IMG/VR virus record: IMGVR_UViG_3300028591_000071
Origin: a virus
Lineage: Duplodnaviria > Caudoviricetes
DNA: 64,000 nucleotides
Strand: one strand, 5' to 3'
The first letter of the stretch is position 1, and each line of letters opens with the position of its first letter. Positions 6,814 to 51,456 of this stretch are shown piece after piece. The position numbers and the translations under genes were made by a program. The notes beneath the pieces were generated by a model. It saw only the letters and a list, made by a program, of their open reading frames with translations. It had not been told where the DNA came from and did no database searches.

Positions 6814-7335
6814 TTATCCACCAATGGCAGAGTTCATTTCACCTTGGTATTGTTTATTTAACCAATCGGCAATCATCTTATACAAAGCACTTGTAGCATC
6901 AGATTCTTCTTGTACATTATATAAATAATCATATAGTTCTTTCACTTTCATTAAAGTGTCCTCACTTGGGCGTGCCCAAGTTTCACTTAGTATCTTCTTC
7001 ACGCTCTCAGCGACAATCTGCCTGAGAGTATTTTCACTCAATTTTACAGTATTCTCGTTGGTGGATTTTTTGCTGATAATCCTTACATTGTTCTTTCCTT
7101 GACGGCGTAAAGCATCAGCCTTTCTTTCTGCCGCTTCTCTTGTCTTGAATCCCTTATCGCCAACAATACTTCTGTTTGGGCCTTCGCCAATTGTGACAAA
7201 GAAATTCAGGTTTTCATCTTTTGGCCCGACATTTCCCTTCGGGTTTTTTGGGTCAGTAACCCTTTGGAACTTCAGAGCCTCAGCAACAATCTTCCTGATG
7301 GTATTCTCGTTTATCTTTACTACATTCTTTTTCAT
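6814..7335 (-). CDS. Putative head-internal protein with two copies of the helical tag
   Basis: KINENTIRKIVAEAL and KLSENTLRQIVAESVKKILSE; upstream TATTTAT at 7353-7359. Confidence 0.75.
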   Translation of the reverse strand: MKKNVVKINENTIRKIVAEALKFQRVTDPKNPKGNVGPKDENLNFFVTIGEGPNRSIVGDKGFKTREAAERKADALRRQGKNNVRIISKKSTNENTVKLSENTLRQIVAESVKKILSETWARPSEDTLMKVKELYDYLYNVQEESDATSALYKMIADWLNKQYQGEMNSAIGG

Positions 7336-7365
7336 AATAAATCGATTTTCTTATAAATAGTACAA

Positions 7366-7695
7366 TTATTTGATTAACCACATATAATCATTTTCTTCAT
7401 TGTCTTTCTCCAAATCATTGTATCCGTGCCGTTTATACCACGAATACGCGTTGCTTCCTATTTTCGCTTTAAGGCATATTTGCTTACAGCCAAACTTTTC
7501 AGCGATTTTGTCAGCCGTTTCAAGTATTTTATTTCCTAACCCTTCACCACGATGCTCTTTTGACACAAAGACATTTGAAAGGTACAAGGTGCTATGGTCA
7601 TCGTCATAAACATATACGGAAAACCTAAACGACTTATTTTCGCCGTTTATGTTCCAAACCATTCCCCAATCAGTTTTTTCTTTATCTATTGTCAT
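7366..7695 (-). CDS. GNAT acetyltransferase
   Basis: VFVSKEHRGEGLG acetyl-CoA motif; WYKRHGY. Confidence 0.85.
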   Translation of the reverse strand: MTIDKEKTDWGMVWNINGENKSFRFSVYVYDDDHSTLYLSNVFVSKEHRGEGLGNKILETADKIAEKFGCKQICLKAKIGSNAYSWYKRHGYNDLEKDNEENDYMWLIK

Positions 7696-7698
7696 ATT

Positions 7699-9072: not shown

Positions 9073-9320
9073 CTGTTAATCAATTAATTACGAAGTTTTT
9101 TATCATCGTACTCATATAATTTCTTATATGTTTGGCGTACATTTTCACATAAAGTGTTCCGCACTCTTGGATGGATTATATTTATTCACCATCTACGCTC
9201 TACGGTGTTTCTGAGCCTTTCGCAATCTCAGAACTTACCTCGGTATTGCCATATCCGTACTTTGCAGCAGAGACTTAGGGTTCACCGATTTTGCGGAATT
9301 TAAAGTCGGCAGAGTTGTTT
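9073..9320 (-). ncRNA. Group I self-splicing intron without ORF (248 nt)
   Basis: 5' exon ends in U with P1 AGUCGGU/GCCGACU; terminal G; P3 UUCCGCA/UGCGGAA; P7 GCGUA/UACGC; removal joins the exons in frame. Confidence 0.9.
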
Positions 9321-9899: not shown

Positions 9900-11519
9900 A
9901 TGCCCGCAAAATCAAATAAAGAAGAATTCATAAGAAGAGCAAAGTTAGTTCATGGAGATAAATATGACTATTCTAAAGTGAATTATGTAAATAATAGAAC
10001 AAAGGTCATAATTATCTGTCCTGAGCATGGAGAATTTGAACAAGTTCCCGATTCTCATTTAAGGGGGAGCGGATGCCCAATTTGTAGGTGGAAAAAAGCA
10101 AAAGAAAGTATTAGAAGAGCTCAGGGAATGACGACAGATGAATTTATAGAAAGGGCAAAGAAAGTACATGGAAATAAATATGATTACTCAAAAGTAAAAT
10201 ACGAAAATACAGAAACAAAGGTGTGTATAATATGTCCTAAACATGGCGAATTTTGGCAAACACCCCATCATCACTTAATGGGAATTGGATGCCCCCTTTG
10301 TGGCCAAAAGAAGTATGGAACAGAAGAGTTCATTGAACGAGCAAAGAAAATACATGGAGATAAATACGATTATTCAAAAACCAATTTTATTGGCAAAAAA
10401 TATAAAGTAATAATAACATGCCCAATTCACGGAGATTTTGAGCAATTACCGCTGAATCATTTAAAAGGATATGGGTGTCCAGAATGCGGTAGACATTTCG
10501 GAAAACAAGAAAAAGCGGTCCTTAAACTTCTTAAAGAAAAATATGAGCATGTTGAGTATCAATATACCAACAATACATTCTTAAAGGGATTAAAGAAAAA
10601 TCTTACATTGGACTATTTTTTGCCGGACTATAACATTGGAATAGAATATCAGGGGATACAACATTTTTATCCACAAAATGTTTTTGGCGGACAAAAAGCA
10701 TATGATGTTGTTTATGAAAGAGATTTTAGAAAATATCAACAATGCAAAGAACACGGAATTCAAATATTCTACATATCTTTCGAAAAGAAGATTCCTGAAG
10801 ATTATTTTGCCCCTGTGTATAAAACATTTGAAGATTTAGCAAATGCAATTGATATTTATATTAGTAAAAAAGACGAAAACAATATGAAGACACTTAACGA
10901 ATCCATTATAAGAAAAATCGTCGCGGAATCGCTGAAAAAAGCCCTTATGGAGAACATAGAGGGCGAATACAGGACAAAAGGCTCTCTCAATAAGAAGACC
11001 TTGGAGAAGAATGCAGGAAAATCTGCAGAGGAAATTATTGCCGACAGGAAGAAGAAAGCAGAAGAAGATGAACTCGCATCAAGATGGGAGGATACCGCAG
11101 AGGATGTCCTTTCAAGATGGAATGACGGGGATGAAAATGAATTTGACGACACAACAGCAGGCGGAGACTATAAGATAGATTTCTCCGACCCATATTTCTT
11201 CAAAGACGGACAGCGTTGTGACGCGGATGCAATAGGAAATTTCCATAATGATTTTGCAATCGTAAAGAAAGATGGGAAGTGCAATTATGTCAATTCAAAC
11301 GGTGAACTTCTTTCAGACGATTGGTTTGACGCATGCAACGACTTTGAAGATGGCTTTGGTCTTGTAGCGAAAGACAGGAAAAGAAACTTCATAGGAAGTA
11401 ACGGCCAGTTGCTGATGGACATATGGGCCGATAGAGCGGGAGATTTCATTGGTGGAACCGCCCCTCTCATTATCAACGGAGAACGCCACGAGGTTGATAG
11501 GAACGGAAACATACGATAA
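9900..11519 (+). CDS. Homing-endonuclease-like protein (three zinc-ribbon repeats plus PD-(D/E)XK/Vsr-like domain) fused to a tagged WG-repeat-like protein
   Basis: Three YDYSK...IICPxHGEF...GCPxC repeats; LDYFLPDYNIGIEYQGIQH; internal MKTLNESIIRKIVAES at 10884; C-terminal FxxGFAxV-type repeats. Confidence 0.8.
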   Translation: MPAKSNKEEFIRRAKLVHGDKYDYSKVNYVNNRTKVIIICPEHGEFEQVPDSHLRGSGCPICRWKKAKESIRRAQGMTTDEFIERAKKVHGNKYDYSKVKYENTETKVCIICPKHGEFWQTPHHHLMGIGCPLCGQKKYGTEEFIERAKKIHGDKYDYSKTNFIGKKYKVIITCPIHGDFEQLPLNHLKGYGCPECGRHFGKQEKAVLKLLKEKYEHVEYQYTNNTFLKGLKKNLTLDYFLPDYNIGIEYQGIQHFYPQNVFGGQKAYDVVYERDFRKYQQCKEHGIQIFYISFEKKIPEDYFAPVYKTFEDLANAIDIYISKKDENNMKTLNESIIRKIVAESLKKALMENIEGEYRTKGSLNKKTLEKNAGKSAEEIIADRKKKAEEDELASRWEDTAEDVLSRWNDGDENEFDDTTAGGDYKIDFSDPYFFKDGQRCDADAIGNFHNDFAIVKKDGKCNYVNSNGELLSDDWFDACNDFEDGFGLVAKDRKRNFIGSNGQLLMDIWADRAGDFIGGTAPLIINGERHEVDRNGNIR

Positions 11520-14981: not shown

Positions 14982-16997
14982 TTAGCGAATCTCCTGAGGG
15001 TCCCACTGTACAAGACCATCAACCTTCACAGCACCGAAGAAGCGATTGTTCACACACTTCTTGGCATATCTCGTCATGATTCCCTTTACAGGTGCGAAGT
15101 TTTCAGGGTTGTAGATGGTAGGAGTCAACTGCATAGGGATATAAGGTGCATAGATGTAACCTGTGTCGAGGAGGCTCTTGCCCTTATGTCCGATGATGAT
15201 TGACCATGCAGGTGAATATGGGTCGCGATATACCTGATACCTGTTCTGGAGAGCACCGATGCGCTCAATACCCATGTTGTACTGGTCTGACTCAGCAGAA
15301 GCGTCACTTACATGGAAGTACTCAAGGTTGTCGAATACAGCTGAGATTTCAGATGAAACAACAATCCAGTTTGCACCACCACGAAGGGTTGACTTGTGAA
15401 TCTGTGCAGAAATCTGATTGACTCTTGTCATGAGTTCCTGATTCCAATCCTTCTGAGTGTAGTTGGTTGAGAAACCAGCCTGCCTTCTCCAACCATTGAC
15501 ATCCCAACGGAGCTGCCATGGAGCAGCCTTACGGAGGTCACGGAGGATTTCACGGTCGATTTCAGCAGCAATCTGCTCTGAAAGGAGAGCGGTGAGCTCA
15601 GCCTCAGCGTCAATATTGTGGAATGCTGAAACGTCCTGTGCAAGTTCAGGTGACCAAGTTGCACGGAGCTTACGCTCTTCAACTGATACGGTCACGCTGC
15701 TGAGGTTGAATGAAACCTCACCGATTTCGGTCTCAAGCTCGAGTGAGTCGTACTGTGACCATGCTACTGAGAACATTTCCTTAATCTCATCAGCGGTCTT
15801 CTTCTCAATACCTACATAACCGTCAAGGCTGATGCCCTGCTTCTTAGCAGGCTTTGCAAGGTCGAGGTCGATAAGGATGCTTCCGTCTGGTGCGCAGAGG
15901 TTGCTTCCGTATTCAACGATACCCTTACCATACTTCTGAGAAACAACGCGGAATGGGATTCCTTCGTACTTCTCGAAGCAAGCGTGCTCGTTGTCACCCT
16001 CGGTTCCGATAGCGTCCTTTGCAAAAACCTTAAGGGATGCGAGGAAACCTTCGGTATCCATTTCGTTTCCGTCAGGACCGGTAAGTTTACCTGCGTTGAA
16101 CTGTGAGAATCCCTTAACCTTAAGCATGACATTACGGAGAGTTCCATCAGCATAAACCCTGATGTTGTCGTCTGTAAGTTCAACTGGTTCGAAGTCAATC
16201 ATAGTTACAGGAGTTACATCCTCGCTTACGCGGATACGAATCTTACCCTTAGAGTTGTCATAAAGGAAGTCGTTATAGAAGAGGTCATAGAGAGTCCTCT
16301 TGTGGTACTTGGTAACTGAAGGCTTTACCTGACGGATGATTGCATCCTCCTTGTTCTGTGCCTTAAGATACTGAAGTGCTGAGTCGTAGTTGTCTACAGG
16401 GCCCTGTGCTGTTGCATAGGTTCCGTCAGCCTGCTGCTTGTTGTAATCGATAGTGGTTGAAGGGTCGATTTCGGTCCAAGTCTCACCACCGTCCTCACTG
16501 TACTCGAATACCATTCCGTTGACAACCTCATCAGGAAGATAGAAACGGTTGTACTTGTCACCATTGTGGCGGCTTGTACGCTCGTAACCCATCAAACCCT
16601 TATGACGGCCAACTGACTTGTCCTGTACGCGACCGTTCTCATCCAAGAACTCCCACTCACGCTCTGAGGTAACAGGAAGCATGAAGAACAAACGACCAAC
16701 AGGAAGGTTCATTGCCTGTACTGAAACGATGTCGTTAGCAAGAAGCTTGCTGAAAACACGACGGATGATAGGGAAAACAACAGTCTCGAATGAGCCGCTG
16801 CTATCAGTGTTAGTAGCCTCTGAGAGGAGTGCCTTAGCCTCGTTCTCGTAAAGAGTTGCTACATTCTCCTTAACGATACCCTTAAGGCCTTCGGTCATAC
16901 CGAGAGATGCCCAACGGTCGCTAATCTCTTTTCTAATTCTTTTCTGTTCGTTGAGCTCGATTGTGCCCACCTGACCAGATTTCAAAAATTCTTTCAT
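14982..16997 (-). CDS. Major capsid protein (T4 gp23-like)
   Basis: FPIIRRVF, SVQAMNLP, RKLRATWSPELAQD, EIDREI, GYIYAPYIP, GIMTRYA. Confidence 0.95.
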   Translation of the reverse strand: MKEFLKSGQVGTIELNEQKRIRKEISDRWASLGMTEGLKGIVKENVATLYENEAKALLSEATNTDSSGSFETVVFPIIRRVFSKLLANDIVSVQAMNLPVGRLFFMLPVTSEREWEFLDENGRVQDKSVGRHKGLMGYERTSRHNGDKYNRFYLPDEVVNGMVFEYSEDGGETWTEIDPSTTIDYNKQQADGTYATAQGPVDNYDSALQYLKAQNKEDAIIRQVKPSVTKYHKRTLYDLFYNDFLYDNSKGKIRIRVSEDVTPVTMIDFEPVELTDDNIRVYADGTLRNVMLKVKGFSQFNAGKLTGPDGNEMDTEGFLASLKVFAKDAIGTEGDNEHACFEKYEGIPFRVVSQKYGKGIVEYGSNLCAPDGSILIDLDLAKPAKKQGISLDGYVGIEKKTADEIKEMFSVAWSQYDSLELETEIGEVSFNLSSVTVSVEERKLRATWSPELAQDVSAFHNIDAEAELTALLSEQIAAEIDREILRDLRKAAPWQLRWDVNGWRRQAGFSTNYTQKDWNQELMTRVNQISAQIHKSTLRGGANWIVVSSEISAVFDNLEYFHVSDASAESDQYNMGIERIGALQNRYQVYRDPYSPAWSIIIGHKGKSLLDTGYIYAPYIPMQLTPTIYNPENFAPVKGIMTRYAKKCVNNRFFGAVKVDGLVQWDPQEIR

Positions 16998-17035: not shown

Positions 17036-18748
17036 TTAGCAATTTAGTACTCTGTTCATGAAATCAATAGTCTTAAGAACTTCGTCTGACTTGTAAACCT
17101 TGTTCTCATTGAGTTCCTTTGTTCCGTTTGCGGTAACAGAGGCGTTGTTCAAATCAACATTGTTTGTATTGGTCTTCTTCAATTCCCTATTGATTGACTC
17201 ATAGAGGGTTTCTGACTGCTTTACCGTCTTTGCCTCGTTTGCGAAGCGGTTGACGATATCAACTTTCTCGGCCTTTGAAGTTGTATTCTCAAGGAAGAGT
17301 TTCGTAATCTTTCCGAGGTTTACATTCGTGATGTATGCCTCATTGAGATGCTTGCGGAGTTCAACGACTGCCTTCTTGAGTTCGCGGTTCTCAGCCTTGA
17401 TGGCCTTGAGTTCTTTACTCTCATTTACACCTTTGTAGCGTGGGTCAGGAGTACCTGTTACCTCAACGCCCTGTGATGCACTTCTCTGTGACCTTGCCTT
17501 CCTACCGTTTGAGTTAGGAATATGGCTTCCAACTGTGGTGTTTTGCTGTACGAATCCACCTACATTTGTTGCTTCGTCAACTTCTTTTTCACATGTGCAT
17601 TCTTTTCCGCACTTGCCGCACTTAGGGCAGCATTTCTCTTCTTCTTCGTCAACTGTCTTGTCGCCGAATGGGTCGCTCTTGTCCTTTGATGAGCCTGCCC
17701 ATGGTTTTTCTGTTCCCGTAGGAACACCTTTGTGCCAAGACTTGCCACTCTTAGAGGGTTCGTTATTAGAAAGTCCTTTAATAGGGTCTTTGTCTTGGTA
17801 GTTGTCCGTGTATCCAAGGTCTACCTCGAATAGGACCTCTTTGCTTTCTTTCATTGGCTTTTTCATTTTCTTGTTTTCAAATGCAAAGTTATTCATCTCC
17901 TCGCCTTCCAATTCATCGGAATCGAAACTGTCGTCGCCGAATTCATCGTCATCGAAATTGTCGAACTCATCTTCAAAAGATGTTTCATCGTCCCATGGCT
18001 GACTTCCATTAGGAATATCATCGATTTCTCCTTCGTCGTCCTCGTCGTCTGGTAAACCAGCAATGTCGAAACCTTCATTTAGTTCGGCTGAAGGGTCTTC
18101 CTCACCACCCATATCTTCCGTTGGCTCATCTCCGCCAAGGTCGATAACATACTCAGTGCCTGCCTGACCATCCTGTAATTGGATAGTATTTCCTTCTTTC
18201 TTGACAACAACTTGGTCGTCGTCCTTGAGAAGTTTATAAATCTTCACTACATTGTCGTAGTCATTCTCACCGGTGAGGTCATATGTATTGTCGCCTACCT
18301 GATAGTTTGAAAATTCATCCCATCCTTCTTCGCCTTCACCATCCTGAGGTTCTGCAGGCTCTTCGCCTTCGATACCCGCATCAACTGGTGCTTCCTCGGC
18401 TCCTGCCTGTGGCTGTTCTGCTCCCGCCTGCATTGCATTAGGGTCCTGTGCTCCCGCCTGTGGCTGAGGTCCTTCTATCTCGTCATTCTCGTCTTCGCTG
18501 ACATCTGATGAAGAACTTTCTTCGGAATCTTTTTCATTCTCATCTTCGGCGTCATTCTTTTCGTCATCATCGACAACCTCGTAGTCCTTTTCTTCCTCGT
18601 CTTCTACGCTCTCTCTGAGTGCGTCCTTAACGGCTTCATTAAGCATACTACCAAGTGTCTTCTTGCTCTCCTCCTTTATAGCGGAAACTATTGAATCCAT
18701 CTCTAAAAGTGCTTGAGCTGCTACGCCTTTATTATTCTTTACGCTCAT
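17036..18748 (-). CDS. Prohead core/scaffold protein
   Basis: Very acidic, C-terminal coiled coil, many (L/V/I)xE sites; lies between protease and capsid genes. Confidence 0.7.
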   Translation of the reverse strand: MSVKNNKGVAAQALLEMDSIVSAIKEESKKTLGSMLNEAVKDALRESVEDEEEKDYEVVDDDEKNDAEDENEKDSEESSSSDVSEDENDEIEGPQPQAGAQDPNAMQAGAEQPQAGAEEAPVDAGIEGEEPAEPQDGEGEEGWDEFSNYQVGDNTYDLTGENDYDNVVKIYKLLKDDDQVVVKKEGNTIQLQDGQAGTEYVIDLGGDEPTEDMGGEEDPSAELNEGFDIAGLPDDEDDEGEIDDIPNGSQPWDDETSFEDEFDNFDDDEFGDDSFDSDELEGEEMNNFAFENKKMKKPMKESKEVLFEVDLGYTDNYQDKDPIKGLSNNEPSKSGKSWHKGVPTGTEKPWAGSSKDKSDPFGDKTVDEEEEKCCPKCGKCGKECTCEKEVDEATNVGGFVQQNTTVGSHIPNSNGRKARSQRSASQGVEVTGTPDPRYKGVNESKELKAIKAENRELKKAVVELRKHLNEAYITNVNLGKITKLFLENTTSKAEKVDIVNRFANEAKTVKQSETLYESINRELKKTNTNNVDLNNASVTANGTKELNENKVYKSDEVLKTIDFMNRVLNC

Positions 18749-18861: not shown

Positions 18862-19584
18862 TTAAAGAATTTGCCCCAAAATCTCATCTGCCCTGATGAA
18901 TCTTTCGTCCAAAACAGGCTTCTCTTCCTCTTTTGACTCAAGATATTGCCCCAATTCTTCCTTTCCGTTAGGGGAGATAAAGGCCCCCGGAGTACTAGGG
19001 TCACTAACCACATCCCAACAGACTATCTCATAATCATCAGCCACATAGAGTATTCCCATCTTGTTCGTAACGGTTCCGAGACCCCTTGATGAAACGCCTA
19101 TTTTATATCCTTGCAGCAAAAGGTTTGCTGTTTGGTCACCCTGACAGGATATGATTCCATGCTTCCTGAAGCCCGGGCTTGTTATGATTTCAAGTTTTCC
19201 TACAAGCGTGTGTCCTTCCCAATGGAGTTCTACAATGTTTATCGCAACGCGTGAAAGGTCTATTACTGATTCTGATGGGTGATTCAATTCTCCCATTGCC
19301 CTTTTCTCCTGAATCTTGGCCGCGTAGTTATTTACTTCCCTCTTAAGGATTTCCTCAGGATAAATTCTTCCGTTTGCGTTCTCAATGCCGTATTTTTGGA
19401 ATACCGCATCTACAACAAATGGGTATGGGCAATGAAACTCGTCTCCCGATGCGTTTTCGGCGTTGATTGCCTCAAACAACTTCTTATTGTTTCCGCATTC
19501 TGAGGAGATGAATCCGTCATGCTCTATAAGCAAGCCGGTTCCAGTCTGCCCCTTCTTTATTTCAACTAAATTTTGTCTGTCCAT
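18862..19584 (-). CDS. Prohead protease (T4 gp21-like)
   Basis: NANGRIYP, GELNHP, GVSSRG, WDVVSDPS. Confidence 0.9.
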   Translation of the reverse strand: MDRQNLVEIKKGQTGTGLLIEHDGFISSECGNNKKLFEAINAENASGDEFHCPYPFVVDAVFQKYGIENANGRIYPEEILKREVNNYAAKIQEKRAMGELNHPSESVIDLSRVAINIVELHWEGHTLVGKLEIITSPGFRKHGIISCQGDQTANLLLQGYKIGVSSRGLGTVTNKMGILYVADDYEIVCWDVVSDPSTPGAFISPNGKEELGQYLESKEEEKPVLDERFIRADEILGQIL

Positions 19585-19585: not shown

Positions 19586-20746
19586 TTATAACTCCTCTGG
19601 GTGGATATAATCGTCTGTTATTATTCCCTTGTCTTTTTTCATCTTGTCCATCCTGTCAACGAACTTGTCGTATTCAGAATCATCCTTTGCCTTATTGCAA
19701 ATAAACGCCATGATTCTCCTTCCCTTCTTAGTTCCTGCAAGAACCTCTTTCATAAGGAAGTTGAATTTATCGGTCTCCAATGAAGACAATCTTTTAAATA
19801 AATAGGGTATATAGTCGAAACTTATGTCATTTAATGATTTTCTGACCATATTCCACATATGTCTTCCCAATCTCATGTCCCATGGCTCGGCCTTAAGGAA
19901 ATCAGACTTTCCGAGAACGGATATAGCCCTGTTTCTTTCCTTTGGAAGCCCGTGTGAAATGAATAAATCCATGAAGCCCCTTATCGTCTCGCAAAGCAAG
20001 AACGGGAATATGACCCCCTGCGACTCTATCCTGCATTTTGTTTCCTCATTTCCGAGGCGGAGTTCAAATGTTCCCATCTGCAGGTTGTTATCGTCGGTCA
20101 TTCCCAAATCTTCTTTCGTAAAGAGAAGATAATTGTTAAGGGCTGTTATTTCCGTGTATAGTTTTCTGAGTTCAGGATTTATCTCGTCAATTTGATGAAG
20201 GACGGATTCGTCGATTGAATATGATAAATCAAGGCCGATTCCCATACATACCGCATCCAAGAATCTTCTCTTATAAACCTCGCCCTTTATTGCCATCGCG
20301 TCTCCGAGGTCGTCGAATTCCATGTCTTCATCTCCGTCGGCGGGGTCTAATATGACTGAATCCCTGCTTGTGTCCACCTTGTCGGTAAGTGTTATGGAAA
20401 GGTCGACCGCATCTTCAGGAACCGCAAACAGGTCAATGATATAATTGAAGCATATCTTTTCGAGTTCGCTCCTATATGGCCTTTCAATTTCTTCACATTT
20501 GTGAATAAGACCAGCCAAAGCGGATTCAAGGGAAGTCTCATCAACTCCGTCGATTGAACCTATTTCTTTTAAGGCATCCTTTGCAGAATCGAATTCGGTA
20601 TTTACTACTTTCAATATATAAGGTATGTCATAGATATCCGGAATCGCCGGATTATTACCCAATGACGTGCGATGCTGTAAAACCGCCTGTCTTATATCAT
20701 CAGGTATTGTATCTAATAAAATTGATTCTGTAATCAAACGTTTCAT
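19586..20746 (-). CDS. Hypothetical head-module protein
   Basis: Start MKRLITE at 20746, 6 nt after TATTTAT. Confidence 0.75.
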   Translation of the reverse strand: MKRLITESILLDTIPDDIRQAVLQHRTSLGNNPAIPDIYDIPYILKVVNTEFDSAKDALKEIGSIDGVDETSLESALAGLIHKCEEIERPYRSELEKICFNYIIDLFAVPEDAVDLSITLTDKVDTSRDSVILDPADGDEDMEFDDLGDAMAIKGEVYKRRFLDAVCMGIGLDLSYSIDESVLHQIDEINPELRKLYTEITALNNYLLFTKEDLGMTDDNNLQMGTFELRLGNEETKCRIESQGVIFPFLLCETIRGFMDLFISHGLPKERNRAISVLGKSDFLKAEPWDMRLGRHMWNMVRKSLNDISFDYIPYLFKRLSSLETDKFNFLMKEVLAGTKKGRRIMAFICNKAKDDSEYDKFVDRMDKMKKDKGIITDDYIHPEEL

Positions 20747-23718: not shown

Positions 23719-26700
23719 CTACGATAAACTATTCAATTTATCATATGTATCTGACATCAAAGTCGTAATTTTTTCTATATATCCTAATCTTCGGAGGCAC
23801 TTAAAAATAAGGTTTCCGTTTGTAATTTCTATCTCTTTATCGTTCAGACTGCTTTTCCTTTCCTTTTTTATCTCGTCGAAAAGTTTGTCAGCATCTTCAG
23901 ACACTTTCCTTATTTTATAATCGCTATCCGCTCCCTTATAAATAGTAAGAAGTTTGTCAATTTTATCAATGTATTCTGCCACCTTATTTTTAATAAGTGA
24001 CTTGTTTATCTTTGACTTAGATAACTTTTCCCTTTCAGGTTCCTTAATCCATTTGTCCTTGTCGAGAGAATAGACACCGGTTGACGCATGCTTCTCTTTC
24101 GTGTCCTGTACATATAGTTCAACTGGGAAGCCGAATATCTTAAGGTCTTTATGCTCGTCGTTCCAAAGTTTCTTCTGTGAATAGAAATAGTTATCAACGA
24201 AATCGGTTCTCTTATCAACCTTTGAATAATCCATAAGGACATGAAGGTCAATGTCCGAAAATTTCTTATTCCAATTGTAATTGGCGAGAGAGCCCGTCAT
24301 TATGATATCGTCAGGCTTGACCCAATCAACCCCAAGAAACTCGATGAAATCGTCTGCTATATCTAATAATTTCATTCTAATCCTCGAATCGAGTCGCCCG
24401 TCTTTCCAGAATTTGGGGTTGAGTTGCGTCTTTATGTTAAATGATGATAGGTCAATATCGTCAGGGTCTGTTGCTTCAGAAAGATTTTCTATTCCGTCAG
24501 GGTTACGCCTCTGCATGAGTTGAATGAGCCATTTTGAGTATTTACCCTCCTGAAGGATATCCTTTGAATCCTTCTTTGCATATTCAGTCCATTTCCTGAA
24601 ATAGACATTCCCCTTGAGGTATGCTTCAGATTCAATCTCTTCAAGACGCTCGTTATCCTTCACATCATCTTCTGAACTGAAATTAAGGTCAACGCCGTCA
24701 AGGTTCTGTGAGTGGTGAATCATCTCGTGCGCGTATGTGCGTAATATATCTTTAGGGTGTCTGTCCTTACAGAATATTACAATCGTTTTTGATTCAGGTT
24801 CATAATACCCTGTCTTTATGAAAAGTCCGTCCTGTTCATCCCAATTAAGTCTAATCTTCGGATATGGATATACATTGAGGCCGTCGTTCTTCATGAATTC
24901 GGCAATGGACCTCATCATAGGCGTATAATCATCTGCGGAATGCATTTCAATTGATTCATTTACCGCATGGAAATATTCATTGTTTCCGCCTTCTCCGCCA
25001 ATCTTATATTCATCTGCTTCAGGTTCTGCGCCTTCTGCCATTTCATGTTGAACAGAGCCAAACGGAACCTTCCTACCAAATTCATCATATTCCCAAGAGC
25101 CGTCTTTTCCCGGAATAAACTTGAACACATCTTCAAACTTAATTCCAAGCAGTTTTTCCAACTGGCCCTTTGTGAGATAGTCTCCGTCAAATTCGTTTGG
25201 CATGTTGTATCTTGAATATACGACGAAATTGTTTTTAAAAACGATGACAACAAATCTGCTGAGGCCATAGTAGTCGTATGGGAATTTCCAAGAGCCGGGT
25301 TTGTTTGTCCAAGACAAGTCGCTGTTTATAAGACCCATTTCGCCCATGTCATCCTCTTCTCCTGCGATATCGCATAGTTCTCCGAATTGGTTTGCATATT
25401 CCTGATTTTCCATCGCCTCGTCGTGCTTGTTGATGAGTTCTTCGTTCTCAACGAGGTAAACAGTCCCGTCTCCAATCAATCCATACCAAAGGTCGTCTGC
25501 ATATGAAATACACCATTCGCCATCGCAACGGGCATTCATTTCATCATAACTATCAATTCTTGTAACGGTGAACCCGTCTTTGAGCCTGACCATTTTTTCC
25601 GATGTGGAAAATTCAGTTCCTTCGAAATCGGGGACAAAAAACTTCTCTTTTAGTTCCTCAAAGGTTTTTCCTCCGAGATTAGGGTCGTTTATTCCTTGTC
25701 TTTCATAATAATTGCTGTTAGCAATCTTATATAATATCTTATTAAGTACGCTGTATTCATCCCTTGGCAGTCCCTCCTCAAAAAGAATCCTCATAACCCC
25801 AAGCATGAATCTTCCTCCGCAAACTCTTGCATAAGGAATAGCCTCATAGATTTCCATTACCTTATTTCTAATGTCTTGGAAGTCAGTGAGTCCGAATTTT
25901 TCCTTAATATATTTGTTTACCTTTCGGTCGTTTGAGTTTTCGTCAATCACTTCTTCTTCCATCATTCCACCACCGGTAACTGCATCCATGATTCCGGCAT
26001 TTACCTTGTTATGAACTTGGTCTTGTGCGGTTGGAACTTTTTCTTCCAGGAGATGCATCTGCATGAGTTGCTGATTATTTCTTGGCTTAAATGTTTGCAG
26101 ATAGTTTATGCCTGTCAATTCCTGTATCTGCTCTGCGTTCCACATGTTGTTATGATTTTCTCCGCCGAATTCGTGGTTCCATCTCGTAGTAACATTATCA
26201 GGAAGTCCGTCCGCCCCAACTATTAGGGCAATAAGTGAAAGCCCATATTCGTCAAGCGGGCAATTTTCGCCCTGTTCCCTAGGGACATTCTCGAATCCGT
26301 CACGCATCAAGATATACAACTTTCCTCCGTTACTGAGATATTGCGAATATTCCCATAATCCATTCTGTCCGCACACACACCAATCAGTATATTGGTCAAG
26401 CATATTAAGTATATTCCTTCCATTCGCATCAGGAGTAACCATTCCCTGATGATTAACGGTATCGTTAATTGGAACAACCTTATAATGATGGTTGCCTCCC
26501 CCATTGTATTGCGCTAATCGTTCTTTCGCTCCATTTACATACGCATCCATTTTCCCGGCAAATTTTTGCATAATCTCGCCGTAAGACATACCATTAAGGT
26601 CTTTATCCAATTCTTCTCCGTCAAGCATAAACTCAGGCATCTTGTCAATCATCTTCATCAACTTTGAGAACTTGATGATTCCGCCACCATTCATGTTTTC

Positions 26701-34855: not shown

Positions 34856-35214
34856 TACTTGCTAACCTTAATGAAACAACCGGTTTGACCATTGTATTCT
34901 TCCATACCTTCCGCCCTTGTTCTTACGCCCTTATCTTGATAATAGATGTTGAGGTCTTCAACAAGTTCCTCGAAAGGAAGTGATTCATCAAATGCAAACA
35001 CTGCATCATTACTCTTATAGCACCTGAGTACCAAGAAATTAGGGCCCTTATCGGCTGTGACTGCTTTCCATCCGTTACCTTTTATAACATCAGACGCTTT
35101 CTGTGGTTTTCCTTCCGGTCTTGTCCTTCTGAAAAGGCCCTCACTTAGCATCTTTTTTGTTGCGTTATAAACTATAGCGGCAATCTCGTTTTCGTTCAAC
35201 TTAAGTTTGTTCAT
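34855..35214 (-). CDS. Tagged hypothetical protein
   Basis: LKLNENEIAAIVYNATKKMLSE; upstream TATTTAT at 35236-35242. Confidence 0.7.
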   Translation of the reverse strand: MNKLKLNENEIAAIVYNATKKMLSEGLFRRTRPEGKPQKASDVIKGNGWKAVTADKGPNFLVLRCYKSNDAVFAFDESLPFEELVEDLNIYYQDKGVRTRAEGMEEYNGQTGCFIKVSK

Positions 35215-39088: not shown

Positions 39089-39095
39089 AAAAAAC

Positions 39096-39123: not shown

Positions 39124-39844
39124 ATTTCATATAGTTGTTTATGAATTCAAGCAAATCAGAATATCCGCTGTTGAATGCCATCCGTTCCCCAAATTCTTCG
39201 CAGAGGTCTTCTTCGTCAAAACCAAGCAGCCACCTGACGGCTTTCAGTTTTTTACCTTTGAATATTCCCGTTCCCCGCTGAGTGTCAAGCCTTCTCTGCT
39301 GCTTAATCCAATCAATGAGCCCGTGGCCACATTCATGCCAAAGACTTACCCTTATTTGGTCTATCACATCGTCGTAGGTTATGAAATCATCTTCATCTTC
39401 GAGCCATGACATTATAGCAGCCTTATTCACGGAAAATCTCATGCAGCCATCACGCCTGACGCTTCTGTTCTGATACACAGCCACGCAGTCAGCGTAATAT
39501 CCCGAAAAATCGTAACGCTTGTTGAACTTCGCCTTTATTCCGAATTGCGATAGATATTCGTTTATTAACTGGCATATTTGCGAGACTTCGTCATCGAAAT
39601 TCTGTTCAACCATATCGGAAACCTCAGATTCGGCAATCATCCTGACTGATTCATAGACCATTTTCCTGATGTCATCCTCACATAGGTCAATCTTGTGTTT
39701 TTCCTTTCTCGTGTAGGCTTTCTTGTTTCTCGTCTTGGTTGTCCTGAACACAGTCGGCTTACCGTGATGTTCGATGTCTTCCCGTCTTCTCTCAGCACCG
39801 TCACGCTTGATTATGTCTCTGTTTATGTCAGTCTTTTTCGGCAT
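39122..39844 (-). CDS. Tagged zincin-like protein
   Basis: DLCEDDIRKMVYESVRMIAE tag; LWHECGH. Confidence 0.7.
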   Translation of the reverse strand: MPKKTDINRDIIKRDGAERRREDIEHHGKPTVFRTTKTRNKKAYTRKEKHKIDLCEDDIRKMVYESVRMIAESEVSDMVEQNFDDEVSQICQLINEYLSQFGIKAKFNKRYDFSGYYADCVAVYQNRSVRRDGCMRFSVNKAAIMSWLEDEDDFITYDDVIDQIRVSLWHECGHGLIDWIKQQRRLDTQRGTGIFKGKKLKAVRWLLGFDEEDLCEEFGERMAFNSGYSDLLEFINNYMK

Positions 39845-43249: not shown

Positions 43250-43325
43250 ACTATACAATATCTCTAAGATAAATAGTTTATGCCTTCCATTTGTGCTATT
43301 CAAATTATTTTTGTATATTTGAGAC

Positions 43326-44492: not shown

Positions 44493-44550
44493 TTCTTTGA
44501 GGGATAAAAAAAGAAATCCACTCCAATTGGGGTGGATTTTTTTTGTTTAT

Positions 44551-45883: not shown

Positions 45884-45893
45884 AATGAGTTTT

Positions 45894-47651
45894 TCATTGT
45901 CCCAATAACTTTTTTACGCACTCATTTATCATTTCTTCAATATCTTCTTGGTTGAACAATGATGGCTCTTTTAATGCCCTCTTTGTGTTTGACACTTTAG
46001 CCGCGATTGAAGTTTTCTTTGACATAAAATCATATGACGGAACAAGTTCTGACAATTTTTTTATAGCATCATGTGTGTCAGTAACATTGGTTATAGTGAC
46101 CGGTTTTCCGTTAATTCTAAATGTTAAAGAAGGAATAACAATGTCTGATGGTTTTCTTCCCCTCTTTTTAGGCTCTCCATTTACTTTATCCAATTTTTTG
46201 AGTTTCGATGCGGCTGCGTTACCTCTTTGATATTGTGTAACAATACCCTTTCGCCTGTCTTTCATCCTCTCATATGCCGCATGGTTTCTTGCTTTCTTGT
46301 CTTTGTCCGCAGTCTTTATATCTTCATCATGCGGCCATATCATTTTCATTATATTCGCCGCCGCCACAAACAATTTCTTATAATTGTCAAGGTTAAACCT
46401 TTCTTCAATTATCTTGAAGATTGAATGTATCATTGATTTCGATATGCCCTTAAGAAAATCAAACTTTGGATTGCTGCTAAAACAATATTTTGCTATTTCC
46501 GAATTAGTCAAAGATTCGTATGTAGAAAATATCATATCGGTTATCTTCTTGTTCAAACTCGGTTCCCTTATCGGGCCGGTCAATTCTTTAATGACACTAA
46601 GAACATTTTCTGCTGAGAATAATGAATTGAATCTGAAAAGACCGGTATGCATGTTAGATTCGTTAACGGGCACTAGATTGCCATATTTTTCCATGAAAAG
46701 AACAATCCAAACAAAGACGGCGAGATTTTTGAGTTTTGCACTCTCAATCAACTTCGGCATTCTTTTTTTCTTTGCCTGCATCGTGTCTAATTTATCTGTT
46801 ATTTCCGGTCTCCATGTAAGCGGAGATATGCCAACTTTTTCTCCCGCGCTTTTAATTCTCTCAAAATCAGGCCTGTTATATGATTTAAAATCCCCATAGA
46901 CATGAATCTTCCCTTCAACGGGGGTTCCTTTTGCTAAATCCAAAATTTCTTTAGCGTCAACTATAGAATCTTTGGACGATGCCAATATATCTATCCTCGT
47001 AATATAATTGAGTATTCCGTCAAAATCGTATGTGTAGCCAAACAATCTATCTTCGGCTTGTTTAATCATTGACATTTTTGTTGCGTCACCGTTCGCCCAT
47101 TTGCCCGAGGTAGTTTGAAGGTTGTGTTTATGGACCTTTCCGTTCTCATCAGTATATGGCCCGAAAAAATCTATTGGCTTTATAACGCGGCCGGCGGACA
47201 ATGCCCTTCCATCAAATGTTATTCTTGCAGAGCCAACACTGTTTGGTAATGTTGGGGATACATTTATCTGTTTTCCTCCCTTTCCGTATGAGGCATTAGG
47301 GTCTATTGCCTTTGTATAGCCCCAGTTTGCGTTTGGACTTCTTGTAAGACTTAGATAATGAGTGTAATTACCTTCTCGTCCCAATATTTGTTTATCAACT
47401 TTTCCAGGATGGCTTAGTGAGAAATATCCGCCATTCTTTCCGTTGTTCTGGAGCATTGACTTTATTGAGTTTATGCTTGTAAAATGGTATAGAATTTCAG
47501 AGCCGCCCCTTTCATTTATTTTGTTTTCGTTTAGTGCGGATTGATGGTCGAATTTACTCCTGTCATGGCATAGCGTTCCCATATTCCTTTCAAGGAGCAA
47601 GGAAACACATTCTGTAACCATCTTGCGTATATCTGATTCTAAAAATACCAT
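45894..47651 (-). CDS. Tagged protein with possible ADP-ribosyltransferase-like N-terminal domain
   Basis: Tag at both ends; LYHFT...LSLTRS...AEDR; the ART assignment is inference. Confidence 0.65.
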   Translation of the reverse strand: MVFLESDIRKMVTECVSLLLERNMGTLCHDRSKFDHQSALNENKINERGGSEILYHFTSINSIKSMLQNNGKNGGYFSLSHPGKVDKQILGREGNYTHYLSLTRSPNANWGYTKAIDPNASYGKGGKQINVSPTLPNSVGSARITFDGRALSAGRVIKPIDFFGPYTDENGKVHKHNLQTTSGKWANGDATKMSMIKQAEDRLFGYTYDFDGILNYITRIDILASSKDSIVDAKEILDLAKGTPVEGKIHVYGDFKSYNRPDFERIKSAGEKVGISPLTWRPEITDKLDTMQAKKKRMPKLIESAKLKNLAVFVWIVLFMEKYGNLVPVNESNMHTGLFRFNSLFSAENVLSVIKELTGPIREPSLNKKITDMIFSTYESLTNSEIAKYCFSSNPKFDFLKGISKSMIHSIFKIIEERFNLDNYKKLFVAAANIMKMIWPHDEDIKTADKDKKARNHAAYERMKDRRKGIVTQYQRGNAAASKLKKLDKVNGEPKKRGRKPSDIVIPSLTFRINGKPVTITNVTDTHDAIKKLSELVPSYDFMSKKTSIAAKVSNTKRALKEPSLFNQEDIEEMINECVKKLLGQ

Positions 47652-47752: not shown

Positions 47753-48610
47753 GTGAAATTTACCGAAACAGACATAATGGAAATGACCCGCAGGGCTGTA
47801 GAACGGATTCTTTCTGAAAATGTTCAGAACGAATTGGAATCGTGGCATGGCTCTGCTGCTGATTTCGATAAATTTGACTTAAGTTTCATTGGGACGGGTG
47901 AAGGAACGCAGGCCTATGGATACGGAGTATATGTAACGGGTGTTGAAGATACGGGAAGGATGTACGCCGTGGTAGCGACATATAACGGAAATGTAAAAAC
48001 AAACAAAAGTGCTGAGTCACTTAAGCAATACAAGAGATTCGTTTCGGCCCTGAAAAGCGTGCTCAAAGAAATAAGGAAAAACATTGGCAACAACCCATCA
48101 GAATTTATACCATTTGCTGTTAATAAGATATCAAAGGTGAAGGGTGTTACTCCTGAGATGATTGATATGGTCAGGTCTGCAGATTCAATTTGGAAAATGA
48201 GGCAGTTGTTCGTCAGGTTTCAAACCATGGCAACAAGGTCTTTCTCAAGATTCCTATACAGACTTGAGATACCTGATGAAGGATATATTGATTGGAACAG
48301 CACGGATACAAACCTGATAAGTAGAATATATGAGGAATTCAAGAAAAATTTCGATGTAAGGCATGTCAATCTCAAAAAGGTACAAACATTCGGAGACCTG
48401 TATTCACAATTAAGAGGGTGGTCAAAATTGAGACATGAGGCAAAGAAAACAGTTATACCACAGAAACAAATTAGTTTGTTCTTATCAAAACTTGGATATA
48501 CAGGGATAAGGGTTCCAATCGGGAACATGCACGGAGGAGACAATATTGGAAATAATTATGTGATATTCGATGCCAATGACATAAAGATAGAAAATAAGGA
48601 GAGGTTTTAA
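47753..48610 (+). CDS. Tagged ART-PolyVal-like ADP-ribosyltransferase
   Basis: WHGS..DFDKFD...IGTGEG.QAYG.GVY; LGYTGI, NYVIFD. Confidence 0.75.
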   Translation: MKFTETDIMEMTRRAVERILSENVQNELESWHGSAADFDKFDLSFIGTGEGTQAYGYGVYVTGVEDTGRMYAVVATYNGNVKTNKSAESLKQYKRFVSALKSVLKEIRKNIGNNPSEFIPFAVNKISKVKGVTPEMIDMVRSADSIWKMRQLFVRFQTMATRSFSRFLYRLEIPDEGYIDWNSTDTNLISRIYEEFKKNFDVRHVNLKKVQTFGDLYSQLRGWSKLRHEAKKTVIPQKQISLFLSKLGYTGIRVPIGNMHGGDNIGNNYVIFDANDIKIENKERF

Positions 48611-48695
48611 GCCTCTCTTTTTCATTTTGCATTTTCCGTAAAATCCGCCGAAACACACTATTTATTTTTGAAAGGAAGAAACAAATCCAACATTT

Positions 48696-49025
48696 ATGGC
48701 AAAAGAGAAGAAGGATGTTAATATCGCGAGAGAGTGGGCGAAATTAGGCATAGGCGTGTTCTTTGCCATCGCCGGCGTAGGTCTCATAGCATGGAGCATG
48801 CTCATACCTCCTGCGGGGGTGATACATGCCACCGTACTCGGAGCATTCGGAACGCTTCTCACATGGGCGGGAGCGATGTTCGGAATGGATTCCAATACGA
48901 AGATAAAAATGCACGAACAGGACATCGACTTCGAGATAAAGAAAATGGAACTCGACGAACGCATGCGGCAGTTCGATGCCCGTCTCTATGCCGAAACGAG
49001 GAAAGAAGAAAAGAAGGAAGAATAA
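48696..49025 (+). CDS. Two-TM membrane protein (holin-like)
   Basis: Two hydrophobic segments and a charged C-terminus; upstream TATTTAT. Confidence 0.6.
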   Translation: MAKEKKDVNIAREWAKLGIGVFFAIAGVGLIAWSMLIPPAGVIHATVLGAFGTLLTWAGAMFGMDSNTKIKMHEQDIDFEIKKMELDERMRQFDARLYAETRKEEKKEE

Positions 49026-49116
49026 TTTTGTGATACATATCTTATTTATAGAAAATGCACTTCCATTAAACAGGAAGTGCATTTTTGTTTTTACGATATA
49101 ATGATGTATATTTGCA

Positions 49117-51456
49117 TCATGCGTTCAGAAGCAATGACACGCATTCATTGACCATTTTCTTTATGTCAGATTCGTTTATGCGCATTGTATCAGGCTTTCC
49201 TTCTATCTTTCCAAGATATTCTCCGCTATTCGGGTCTATTACATGCCAAATATCGTTTTCATATTCGTCATATGACTTGTTAAAATAAAACTTTCCTTGA
49301 ACGACATCGTATTCGTAGATTTCCTTGGCAATGATTTTACCGGTGGATAAATTGACCAAATCGTTCAGTATGCTATCATCGTTAAAAGAATATCTCTCCA
49401 ATAGAGCAATCGCTCCCCAAACACGCCTGCGAACGAAATGTCCTTTGAATCTCGCCAAAACATCGCTTCCTCCGTCTACCGTTCCCCCGTTTGCGGACAC
49501 CACAAACGCGTGCGAGCAAATGTCGTCCGACCAATCGCTTGATTCTTCGTATGCCCTGCTTACAAAGTTTCGTTCAAAATCGTTCGTTCCATTGCATTCA
49601 ACATTAACCAACATTCTGTTTGTTTCCCTTGAGATAATCCTGAATATTCCAAAATCAAATTTTATTGGGTACCCCATTTTCGCCTCGTTATCGCTGCCGT
49701 GTTCAATAATGGCGTGGATAAGTTCATCGTCGTACATCCCATCATTGACACTCTTTTCAAGTGATGCCGTGGCCTTTTGTTCGAAGGTGATTACTCGTTC
49801 CTCCCAATAATCTTGCTCATTTTCTACCCCTTTGACTGTTTGTTCAATAAGTTCTCCGTACGGAATCTCTTGCAAGAGTTTGTTTAATGTTTCAGGATTT
49901 GAGAAAAGTGCGGCGACATCTTTCATATTCTTGTCCTTGTCAAGAAAGTCACAGCACGAATCAAGTTCCCCGTCTTCGTAGAATTGGCATTGGATGCTGA
50001 GTTGTCTGTTTTTCTTTGAAACGAACTGAACAAGGCAAGCATATCCTTCTGTTGTATAGTAGCAGAACATCTTGAAACCGTTATACCTTCCCGCAATGTC
50101 AGATGCCGTGCACCAGTGTGAGTCTCCGTAATATTTCTTTGATGCGGAATAACTTGTCGTACAGGTGACGAGCACATTATCGTCTTCAAATATCTTTATG
50201 AGCCCATTATCGGCGAATTTCATTTCTGTGTGATAAGGCATCTTTTCCGTTGTTTCAAGAAAACGAAGAAGTGAATGGAACGAAGGGTTTCTACCTCTTT
50301 TCTTCCACCCGTTTATCATGTCAATGACATATTGCCTTCCCTCGCCATCAAGTTTGTTCCAAACCCCAGGAACCTTCTCTGCGAGTTGTTGACTCCATCC
50401 ACCATAGTCCTTGAACATGGCATCTAGCGCGAGTTTATGGAGCGGGGTCATTGTCGGAGCACCGGACATGAATGCGTTCCACTGCTCAGGTGAAACCTTA
50501 TCCTTGTAAAATTTGTTGTATGCATCGGCTGAAGAAATCTCGTTGAGCATCGCCTTCTTGAACGCGGAGACAACCATCTCCTTCAAGTCATTTCTGGTCA
50601 TCTCCATAACGGTTCCGTTGTCAATCCTTGCCGTAAATTTAAATTTACCCAACTCATTTACAATCGGTTTACCTGTGATGTCCCAATATCTGTATGTTTT
50701 CATTTCGTGCTTGTATCCTTTTTCGAACAGTAGGCTTACCAAATCAGGGTCTTGTGATGTGAGGAGCCTCAGGCATCTTCCTTCCCTACTTTCAATCCTT
50801 TCCACTTCGCCGACAAGATTCCAATTATTGGCATTCATGAGCCTAACTTCTCCGTTTTTCATATACATGACTACGACAATAATCCTTGAGGCTTTTGCCG
50901 CCGCTCTTCTTTTTTTCTTTTCGGCGAACACGGAATTGAGTTCCATCTCGTTCATCTGCTCAGCCTTCGCAATCCTTTCTACGGTGAAGAACTCGTTTGA
51001 CTTTTGGCTGACTCGGAACGCTATAGACTTGAATTCATTGCCGTGGTGCTGAACGGGCCTCCATCCATCCATGTTGCAATAATAATGGCACATCTCATGA
51101 ATCAATGTGCTGAGCGCAGCCTTTTTTGACCACTTATAATTGCCGTTCAGTTCAATGCGAGGCTTGCAGACCGATGCGAAATTTTCTTTCGTGATGTAGT
51201 TTTTGTCGCCCCACATATCCTTTGTAAACATCCTTCTTGAACTCTTGGAAACATATATGCCGGTGCCGGTTATCTTGAACCAACCAAGAACACCGCCCTC
51301 TGCGCCCTTTCCTGTTGTGAAGAGCCCGAATGAACAATCTCCAAGTTTTCCGTCAAAGTAAGATGTGTTCAACCTGTTATACTCCGTCTGAATCCAAGCG
51401 GGGGTAAGGTCAATTACATCATTCTCATCAAGTTCGTTTATCAGGTCGTATTTCAT
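49117..51456 (-). CDS. Tagged SprT-like protease plus WCT (PcfJ-like) domain protein
   Basis: TLIHEMCHYY, HGNEF; SHWCTAS; tags MTRNDLKEMV and INESDIKKMVNECV. Confidence 0.8.
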   Translation of the reverse strand: MKYDLINELDENDVIDLTPAWIQTEYNRLNTSYFDGKLGDCSFGLFTTGKGAEGGVLGWFKITGTGIYVSKSSRRMFTKDMWGDKNYITKENFASVCKPRIELNGNYKWSKKAALSTLIHEMCHYYCNMDGWRPVQHHGNEFKSIAFRVSQKSNEFFTVERIAKAEQMNEMELNSVFAEKKKRRAAAKASRIIVVVMYMKNGEVRLMNANNWNLVGEVERIESREGRCLRLLTSQDPDLVSLLFEKGYKHEMKTYRYWDITGKPIVNELGKFKFTARIDNGTVMEMTRNDLKEMVVSAFKKAMLNEISSADAYNKFYKDKVSPEQWNAFMSGAPTMTPLHKLALDAMFKDYGGWSQQLAEKVPGVWNKLDGEGRQYVIDMINGWKKRGRNPSFHSLLRFLETTEKMPYHTEMKFADNGLIKIFEDDNVLVTCTTSYSASKKYYGDSHWCTASDIAGRYNGFKMFCYYTTEGYACLVQFVSKKNRQLSIQCQFYEDGELDSCCDFLDKDKNMKDVAALFSNPETLNKLLQEIPYGELIEQTVKGVENEQDYWEERVITFEQKATASLEKSVNDGMYDDELIHAIIEHGSDNEAKMGYPIKFDFGIFRIISRETNRMLVNVECNGTNDFERNFVSRAYEESSDWSDDICSHAFVVSANGGTVDGGSDVLARFKGHFVRRRVWGAIALLERYSFNDDSILNDLVNLSTGKIIAKEIYEYDVVQGKFYFNKSYDEYENDIWHVIDPNSGEYLGKIEGKPDTMRINESDIKKMVNECVSLLLNA

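Follow-up and report, generated by a model that had tools for sequence, protein, structure and literature searches.

How do unrelated proteins of one phage come to carry the same short peptide? The question is raised by IMG/VR record IMGVR_UViG_3300028591_000071, a stretch of 64,000 nt (the window) from an uncultured T4-like jumbo phage of ruminant Prevotella. A peptide of 22 residues (the tag) recurs there in seven unrelated open reading frames (ORFs), whose products align to one another in the tag alone. A preliminary description made from the sequence read it as a modular capsid-loading signal ending in a prohead-protease-type site. In a refined form this reading appears the most economical one, on sequence and by analogy. 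The tag is probably a capsid-loading and processing leader or linker that resembles the capsid-targeting sequence (CTS) of T4, enlarged and independent of position.

Every peptide listed in the preliminary description was present in the translation of the ORF to which it had been assigned. A strict regular expression run over the six frames of the window gave six matches, five of them in those ORFs, whereas 50 shuffles gave a mean of 0.08 matches and a maximum of 1. The sixth match, at 16787 on the minus strand, lies inside the capsid gene and is not a tag. A Hidden Markov Model (HMM) built from the five copies recovered four more in window ORFs, at 25.0, 16.6, 15.4 and 10.7 bits. No unlisted ORF exceeded 9.4 bits, so that the copy in ORF 34855 (10.7 bits) was borderline at that stage; with a model built from all nine copies, the next best window ORF scored 6.8 bits. 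Both values belong to the small ORF 773-1015 (plus strand), whose weak tag-like N-terminal stretch has no TATTTAT upstream and may be a degenerate copy. The nine copies, with a tenth, weak one backed by homology, are as follows.

7255..7320, minus strand: tag copy 1, residues 6-27, near the N-terminus of ORF 6814-7335 (173 aa, no known family); 25.0 bits.
6982..7047, minus strand: tag copy 2, internal, residues 97-118 of ORF 6814-7335, ending L-S-E; strict match.
10887..10952, plus strand: tag copy 3, internal linker, residues 330-351 of ORF 9900-11519; strict match.
35140..35205, minus strand: tag copy 4, N-terminal, residues 8-29 of ORF 34855-35226 (123 aa); 10.7 bits, borderline.
39626..39691, minus strand: tag copy 5, residues 52-73 of ORF 39122-39844 (240 aa, HExxH motif).
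47586..47651, minus strand: tag copy 6, N-terminal, residues 1-22 of ORF 45894-47651 (585 aa); strict match.
45897..45962, minus strand: tag copy 7, C-terminal, residues 564-585 of ORF 45894-47651, without a terminal LxE; 16.6 bits.
47753..47818, plus strand: tag copy 8, N-terminal, residues 1-22 of ORF 47753-48610 (GTG start); strict match.
49120..49185, minus strand: tag copy 9, C-terminal, residues 758-779 of ORF 49117-51456 (779 aa); strict match.
50539..50604, minus strand: weak internal leader, residues 285-306 of ORF 49117-51456, L-N-E followed by a conserved cargo domain; 2-3 bits by HMM.

Four of the nine copies thus stand at or near an N-terminus (ORFs 6814, 34855, 45894 and 47753), three are internal (6814, 9900 and 39122) and two lie at the very C-terminus (45894 and 49117). 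They include a divergent subclass carried by large enzymes. Shorter variants reported at 32533, 27105 and 21248 are visible by eye and are missed by the HMM.

The tag is an amphipathic helix with an N-cap-like start: the mean helical hydrophobic moment of residues 5-22 is 0.46, compared with 0.25 +/- 0.13 in shuffles. In a single-sequence AF2 model of the 173-aa double-tag protein, which is of low confidence (mean pLDDT 54), both copies form helices outside a small folded core and show no sign of packing against each other. At identical residues the nine copies share the same codon with a frequency of 0.379, where codon usage predicts 0.408. Since codon sharing is not above expectation, the repeat is kept at the protein level and not as DNA.

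Scanning relatives with the tag HMM, a check proposed along with the preliminary description, located the tag in all five complete related genomes (295-412 kb), with 6-14 matches each and register-specific conservation, and seven times in an 80%-complete relative. The profile is absent from three more distant T4-like phages, Flavobacterium phage immuto, Microcystis phage Mel-JY01 and Rhodothermus phage RM378, and matches LR756508 weakly; tblastn of a 40-aa tag segment against annotated phages gave no match. Of 7999 candidates scored in a word-seeded database search, 791 proteins passed E<=1e-3, all annotated simply as 'hypothetical protein'; when the profile was searched exhaustively, it matched 7207 cluster representatives at E<=1e-3, 349 of them at E<=1e-10. 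The 22 residues fall under no Pfam, PHROG or PADLOC model. Precomputed Pfam assignments are empty for 117 of 120 listed tagged proteins, and in the other three (PF14903 or PF11450) they fall outside the tag. A literature search for the characteristic words of the motif produced no description of it, the sole match being a chance product of optical character recognition. Could such a peptide simply reflect chance, or the low-complexity helical bias of an AT-rich phage? Short K/E/I/V-rich helical peptides are indeed common, but the shuffles, the conservation of register in the five relatives and the 7207 cluster representatives rule this out, and we give it next to no credence.

The next question is how the tag ends. 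N-terminal and internal copies in the window close on hydrophobic-x-Glu, the same form as the predicted maturation site of the capsid protein encoded in the head module of the phage, described by the following features (the slash marks the predicted cut).

14982..16997, minus strand: major capsid protein, Gp23 family (Pfam 2e-72), predicted maturation site L-S-E60/A.
17036..18748, minus strand: acidic scaffold-like protein, called from its composition and its gp22 position between the protease and capsid genes; TATTTAT upstream.
18862..19584, minus strand: prohead protease, T4 gp21 family (Pfam Peptidase_S77 1.2e-26; 32% identity to T4 gp21, BLASTP E=1e-24).
19586..20746, minus strand: head-module protein (386 aa from Met19) with a short N-terminal leader ending I-T-E; CTATTTAT at 20753-20760.

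BLASTP aligns L-S-E60/A of the capsid protein with L-T-E65/A of T4 gp23, which we take to be the T4 cleavage site. The predicted site keeps the form L/I/M-x-E in 77 of 78 aligned relatives, the 78th being truncated, and 20 orthologues of the 386-aa protein keep hydrophobic-x-E at 7-10 residues from the start. The S77 protease is found in all five complete relatives. In T4, gp21 cuts after L/I-X-E, according to the review PMC9026906.

The hydrophobic-x-Glu form occurs at the start of the tag as well as at its end. A sample of 436 tags, drawn from 265 of 266 high-scoring database proteins and biased toward the consensus, keeps Glu in 426 cases at position 5, in 395 at position 14 and in 415 at position 22. 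Two families show where this form falls with respect to the attached domains. In the family of the 585-aa protein (13 members), the junction between leader and enzyme, L-N-E42/N in the window, reads L/I/M-x-E-N in all 13, with E42-N43 invariant, while the leader itself varies and in five members holds the second half of the tag only; all 13 have the C-terminal tag, including three into which a P-loop domain is inserted. For the C-terminal part of ORF 49117-51456 the family comprises 41 homologues, and 38 of the 42 sequences could be anchored (four had no anchor). In nearly all members a leader of 7-36 aa ends with hydrophobic-x-Glu at the conserved start of the domain: [LIVMF]-x-E stands directly at the domain in 33 of 38 and one residue earlier in the other 5. 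The full tag is N-terminal in six of the 41, internal in four and C-terminal in one. The second motif claimed for ORF 49117-51456 is hardly seen by HMM (2-3 bits), but residues 285-306 fall exactly where 40 homologues have their N-terminal leaders, at the leader/domain junction; an upstream fusion to a SprT-like zincin makes the motif internal. One protein, P0305, fuses the families of two neighbouring window genes with the tag as linker. The claim that the tag ends in LxE therefore stands for N-terminal and internal copies and fails for the two C-terminal ones.

These junctions also bear on the possibility that the tag docks its proteins to a hub other than the capsid, such as the ClpB-like AAA+ unfoldase of this phage with its Hsp20 protein, or an intracellular multi-enzyme body, hydrophobic-x-E then serving helix capping or surface contacts. 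An amphipathic helix with an N-cap-like start, usable at either end or internally, would suit such a role, as would the C-terminal copies that lack a terminal LxE and the presence of a ClpB-like gene in the window and in the five complete relatives. However, that gene has a host-type TAnnTTTG promoter instead of the promoter of the tagged genes, leaders of 7-8 residues are too short for a docking helix, and a Glu that stays exactly at the junction over leaders of 7-36 aa is hard to explain by docking alone. We regard this alternative as improbable.

A further feature of the tagged genes is their promoter word. The word TATTTAT occurs 38 times in the window (18.4 expected), and the related late-type word CTATTTAT 18 times (3.07 expected); 13 of these 18 stand 10-50 nt ahead of an ORF start, and a fourteenth, at 48658 on the plus strand, may do so too. 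TATTTAT lies at most 60 nt upstream of 15 of the 70 window ORFs, namely six of the seven tagged ORFs and nine of the 63 others (Fisher's exact p = 2.3e-4). The untagged ones include the scaffold-like gene, an acidic 595-aa head-module gene, the first terminase ORF, the genes for the 1128-aa and InPase proteins described below and a few others. The seventh tagged gene, ORF 39122-39844, closes a co-directional run of genes headed by the following element, which falls within the over-long 5' end of ORF 40640-43351.

43269..43276, minus strand: late-type promoter word CTATTTAT, one of 18 in the window.

All seven tagged genes or their operons carry the late-type promoter word CTATTTAT, in common with the head genes, and the claim that TATTTAT precedes each of them holds, directly for six and through the head of the operon for the seventh. 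Because it is present ahead of head genes, we infer from the sequence that CTATTTAT is a late promoter. The Bacteroidota-type word TAnnTTTG lies upstream of four window ORFs, the ClpB-like ATPase among them, and none of the four is tagged, as had been claimed. Likewise the small-gene array at 52-62 kb, likely early, has neither the tag nor CTATTTAT.

The commonest tag variant also occurs outside phages. In species-representative bacterial genomes it was found at 34 loci, nearly all in rumen or gut Prevotellaceae/Bacteroidales assemblies, the isolates being Segatella bryantii DSM 11371 and Prevotella sp. MA2016. Apart from one endonuclease-like match, no other phage gene of the window was found at these loci. 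A transposase of the IS1595 family, whole or as a fragment, adjoins the tagged gene at 17 of the 34 (phmmer), and DDE_Tnp_IS1595 with a Zn ribbon was recognised at seven of the eight loci scanned with Pfam. At three of four loci examined, terminal inverted repeats of 24-36 nt enclose about 2.5 kb with the transposase and one or two small, often tagged genes. Similar elements with inverted repeats at their ends are present in two of the five complete phage genomes (G001 and G003). No such element is present in the window.

L122:4892-7488, L133:5272-7727 and L109:5101-7633: IS1595-family elements with inverted repeats, Prevotellaceae chromosomes.
L140:2602-5085 and L141:2802-5266: IS1595-family elements with inverted repeats, related jumbo-phage genomes.

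The chromosomal elements are surrounded by glycoside hydrolase, TonB-receptor and other chromosomal genes. In the bacterial loci, 16 of 35 tagged starts have TATTTAT at most 57 nt upstream; the counts in phage loci are 14 of 26 and 15 of 25. The IS1595 family consists of insertion sequences that can bear passenger genes, and the elements found here agree with it in their transposase (DDE_Tnp_IS1595 plus Zn ribbon) and in the inverted repeats of 22-36 nt that enclose the passengers. They differ in that the passengers are tagged genes of phage families, some of them behind a phage late-type promoter. A literature search on IS1595 passenger genes found no description of a link with tagged genes.

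Several passengers and phage genes have in common a near-identical cassette of promoter and leader, and where some bacterial loci are homologous in DNA (L115/L118 and L119/L131), the homology goes no further than the tag. Is the tag then a joint for modular exchange, in which promoter, leader and 5' coding region form a cassette for swapping cargo and the peptide is merely a tolerated linker? An upstream Met is retained in 67 of 112 internal tags, as expected of fused tandem genes, and within the IRLTE class of tags same-codon sharing is somewhat raised (0.541, with 0.43 expected). Nevertheless, codon sharing among the nine window copies is no more than chance, the amino acids persist through synonymous changes and through changes between codon families (Ser6 of the IRLTE class is TCA in 16 cases and AGT in 14), and DNA exchange needs neither C-terminal and internal copies nor an invariant Glu. 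The raised sharing, together with the split of Ser6 over two codon families, indicates that the tag is under amino-acid selection and is also a recombination joint, and this role probably coexists with an addressing role. As the whole explanation, exchange seems unlikely. Neither it nor docking accounts for an invariant Glu at junctions across very different leader lengths.

A broader proposal would be that the tag is a position-independent address code for thousands of cargoes in a clade of Prevotella jumbo phages, exploited by IS1595 transposons of the host whose phage-activated passenger products load progeny capsids. Because the passengers carry a phage late promoter and the tag, they would switch on only under an infecting phage. 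We consider this proposal doubtful.

What has to be explained, then, is a portable motif under selection for its amino acids, accompanied by a common promoter word, a protease of the gp21 family and conserved hydrophobic-x-Glu junctions. Under the capsid-loading reading, the tagged proteins would be made late, alongside the head proteins. The amphipathic helix would attach to some constituent of the prohead core, and the prohead would incorporate the protein. The S77 protease would then cut C-terminal to the hydrophobic-x-Glu at either end of the tag, freeing the cargo and splitting polyproteins of the form tag-cargo-tag-cargo into separate cargoes. The cargo (ADP-ribosyltransferase, zincins and nuclease-like proteins; in relatives also ArdA and SAM-lyase-like proteins) would be ejected with the DNA and act before phage genes are expressed. 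Core binding, cleavage, packaging and ejection are suggested by analogy, and go beyond what sequence and context give directly.

The analogy is drawn primarily with T4, from published descriptions. As set out in PMC9026906, T4 internal proteins have N-terminal CTS propeptides of 10-19 residues, and Alt is trimmed at both ends. The internal proteins of T-even phages are presented in PMC3012670 as diverse defence proteins with only the CTS in common. The window phage is of T4 type by its Gp23 and S77 homologues. It has a short peptide common to unrelated, fast-evolving proteins that ends in L/I-x-E, a putative ADP-ribosyltransferase-like protein (585 aa) with the peptide at both ends, as in Alt, and, with its relatives, cargo of anti-host or anti-restriction type. 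The ADP-ribosyltransferase (ART) cargo parallels Alt, and the ArdA and SAM-lyase-like cargo of relatives parallels the anti-restriction proteins IPI* of T4 and Dar of P1 as they are presented in PMC5512222; the ART-like protein of the window has no similarity to T4 Alt detectable by BLASTP (E = 1.7). The tag differs from the T4 sequence in its 22 residues (about 10 in T4) and its defined amphipathic helix, in serving also as an internal linker and at C-termini, often with two or three copies per protein, and in its occurrence on thousands of cargo clusters and on IS1595 passengers.

A second analogy is offered by the giant phages phiKZ, 201phi2-1 and SPN3US. In the account of PMC10052503 cleavage of many of their head-internal proteins follows the Glu of a three-residue motif, A/S-x-E, and the propeptides, some of 20-24 aa and with multiple sites, have been proposed to act in targeting. 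The tag would have cuts after Glu, short propeptides, multiple sites and a targeting role in common with them. The phages differ in lineage, and the propeptides as that account presents them end in A/S-x-E instead of L/I-x-E and have no single portable sequence. A third comparison is with polyvalent proteins and effectors fused to MuF or portal domains, whose loading Iyer et al. 2017 (PMC5512222) ascribe to MuF or portal fusion and whose processing they ascribe to the proteins' own peptidases. The repertoires overlap (ART-PolyVal, InPase, SprT/zincin-like), and delivery with the DNA is proposed there too, for functions of the kinds seen in the cargo of relatives. Here, by contrast, recruitment of the cargoes, separate or fused, would fall to a short tag and their cutting to the head protease.

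Several observations weigh against capsid loading. Both C-terminal copies in the window lack a terminal LxE, and E22 is present in only 9 of 12 C-terminal copies in the database. The residue after E22 is often Ile, whereas A, S or T follows the site in capsid proteins. The full tag is absent by HMM from 30 of the 41 homologues of the ORF 49117 family, though most of these have shorter leaders. Comparison of the tag profile with an N-terminal profile of the scaffold-like protein (56 aligned sequences, that of the window included) gave an hhalign probability of 33%, an unconvincing likeness that we do not take as homology. The ClpB-like gene, present in the five complete relatives, is as consistent an associate of the tag as the protease. 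Host chromosomes hold tagged genes inside IS1595 elements, where capsid loading is no obvious need, and a homing-endonuclease-like protein is an unexpected cargo. The phage and its relatives are uncultured, and the reading is built on sequence, context and analogy. On balance the preliminary interpretation keeps its main supports, namely portability, confinement to one promoter type, a protease of the gp21 family, the L/I/M-x-E site of the capsid protein (77 of 78) and the hydrophobic-x-E junctions. It loses the C-terminal LxE, and two of the enzyme domains that it listed were not recovered by Pfam.

As for gene order, tagged arrays in the slot of T4 gp67/68 (same strand, upstream of the protease gene) occur at only 2 of 61 loci, and we rejected this arrangement as a rule. 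A tag lies within 3.5 kb of the protease gene on either strand at 11 of 61 loci, and any tag is found at 16 of 61.

Which proteins carry the tag? The preliminary description had named ART, InPase, zincin, PcfJ-like and NTase domains. Pfam confirmed InPase and the SprT-like zincin, ART is supported by Pfam and by the atlas, and PcfJ-like and NTase domains were not recovered at E<=0.01. By Pfam, the polyvalent repertoire amounts to one domain per protein: SprT-like in ORF 49117-51456 (3e-8, at its N-terminus), a weak ART-PolyVal in ORF 47753-48610 and InPase in ORF 32533-34125, which has a half-tag only. The ART-PolyVal match (PF18760, E=7.1e-5) is below the gathering score; the atlas supports it (0.91, 190 shared features), with one structure row reaching the bar, and a PDB sequence search with this protein gave nothing meaningful. 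The 585-aa protein of ORF 45894-47651 has an atlas lead to DarT/PARP/Arr at only 0.86-0.89, and its ART fold depends on that lead. In ORF 9900-11519 the tag stands between a homing-endonuclease-like part and a WG-repeat part. ORF 39122-39844 is the last gene of an operon running from 43249 to 39122, which also has an Amidase_3 gene. The tagged ORF 34855-35226 is followed by a gene for a SprT-like zincin (34139-34855; Pfam 6.9e-14). The 173-aa protein of ORF 6814-7335 is also on record on a 306-kb contig. Two proteins with half-tags complete the set.

32533..34125, plus strand: InPase-domain protein (PF18823 4.2e-51), N-terminal half-tag; CTATTTAT at 32502-32509.
23719..27105, minus strand: 1128-aa multidomain protein, N-terminal half-tag; CTATTTAT at 27111-27118.

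PADLOC found no match in 10 tagged or polyvalent proteins. Among 32 tagged ORFs of relatives, nine matched a Pfam family, including ArdA (3e-30), DUF3293/SAM-lyase, DUF3008 (three), WG repeats (two) and DUF6926. Contigs from one sheep metatranscriptome library, identical to the window, overlap three tagged genes (34894-35211, 39189-39512 and 51210-51456); such contigs cannot show transcription, strand or ends, and may stem from carried-over DNA.

A scan of IMG/VR matched at least 598 stretches, at least 597 of them encoding relatives of the capsid protein, and contigs of 273-412 kb are among the best 80 loci. DNA nearly identical to the window is present in gut runs of sheep, goat and bovine origin from 12 studies. 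When the head region was compared with annotated phages by Megablast, nothing matched.

Other features of the window may be recorded. Two further head-module genes, 21864-23651 and 21250-21798 (minus strand), encode proteins outside the known families, very acidic or Pro/Gly/Met-rich, and lie upstream of the protease gene, in the place of the portal and core genes of T4; no portal gene was recognised among the window proteins. The large terminase gene is split into ORFs 7699-9003 and 9300-9845 (minus strand), both matching terminase PHROGs. Between them, at 9113-9378 (minus strand), lies a sub-threshold match to a group I intron (RF00028, 21.8 bits with a gathering score of 50, E=0.0049). Two homing-endonuclease-like genes, 9900-11519 (plus strand) and 13108-14805 (minus strand), matching phrog_559 and phrog_3339, both have CTATTTAT upstream. 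A TnpB/IS605 OrfB-like gene, 44680-45864 (plus strand; Cas12f1-like_TNB 4.3e-27), has CTATTTAT 14 nt before its start. A contig from an RNA-library run joins 44542 to 45896, omitting 1353 nt, and the element is thus an insertion absent from a close relative. The gene for an EcoRI-like adenine methyltransferase, 2376-3725 (plus strand; 3.1e-80), adjoins that for a GmrSD_N plus HNH protein, 3745-5172 (plus strand), and the two look like a modification/restriction-type pair. The ClpB-like double-AAA+ ATPase with Clp_N is encoded at 29906-32458 (plus strand) behind a TAnnTTTG promoter, and the Hsp20 small heat-shock protein at 38660-39088 (plus strand).

If the capsid-loading reading is true, the CTS principle, embodied in T-even phages by some 10 N-terminal residues, extends to a longer, modular helical code that can stand between domains or at either terminus. 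In uncultured jumbo phages of the rumen and gut the tag would serve a very large set of injected effectors as their organising element, as the 7207 cluster representatives suggest, and would account for the loading and separation of polyvalent-type enzymes. The reading predicts cuts after particular Glu residues and a minimal tag that can be transferred, which would be a candidate handle for protein delivery. The link with IS1595 elements suggests that "capsid-addressed" genes pass between phage and host chromosomes. If the passengers are indeed loaded into capsids, they may hitch a ride, bias the next infection of the phage or sabotage it.

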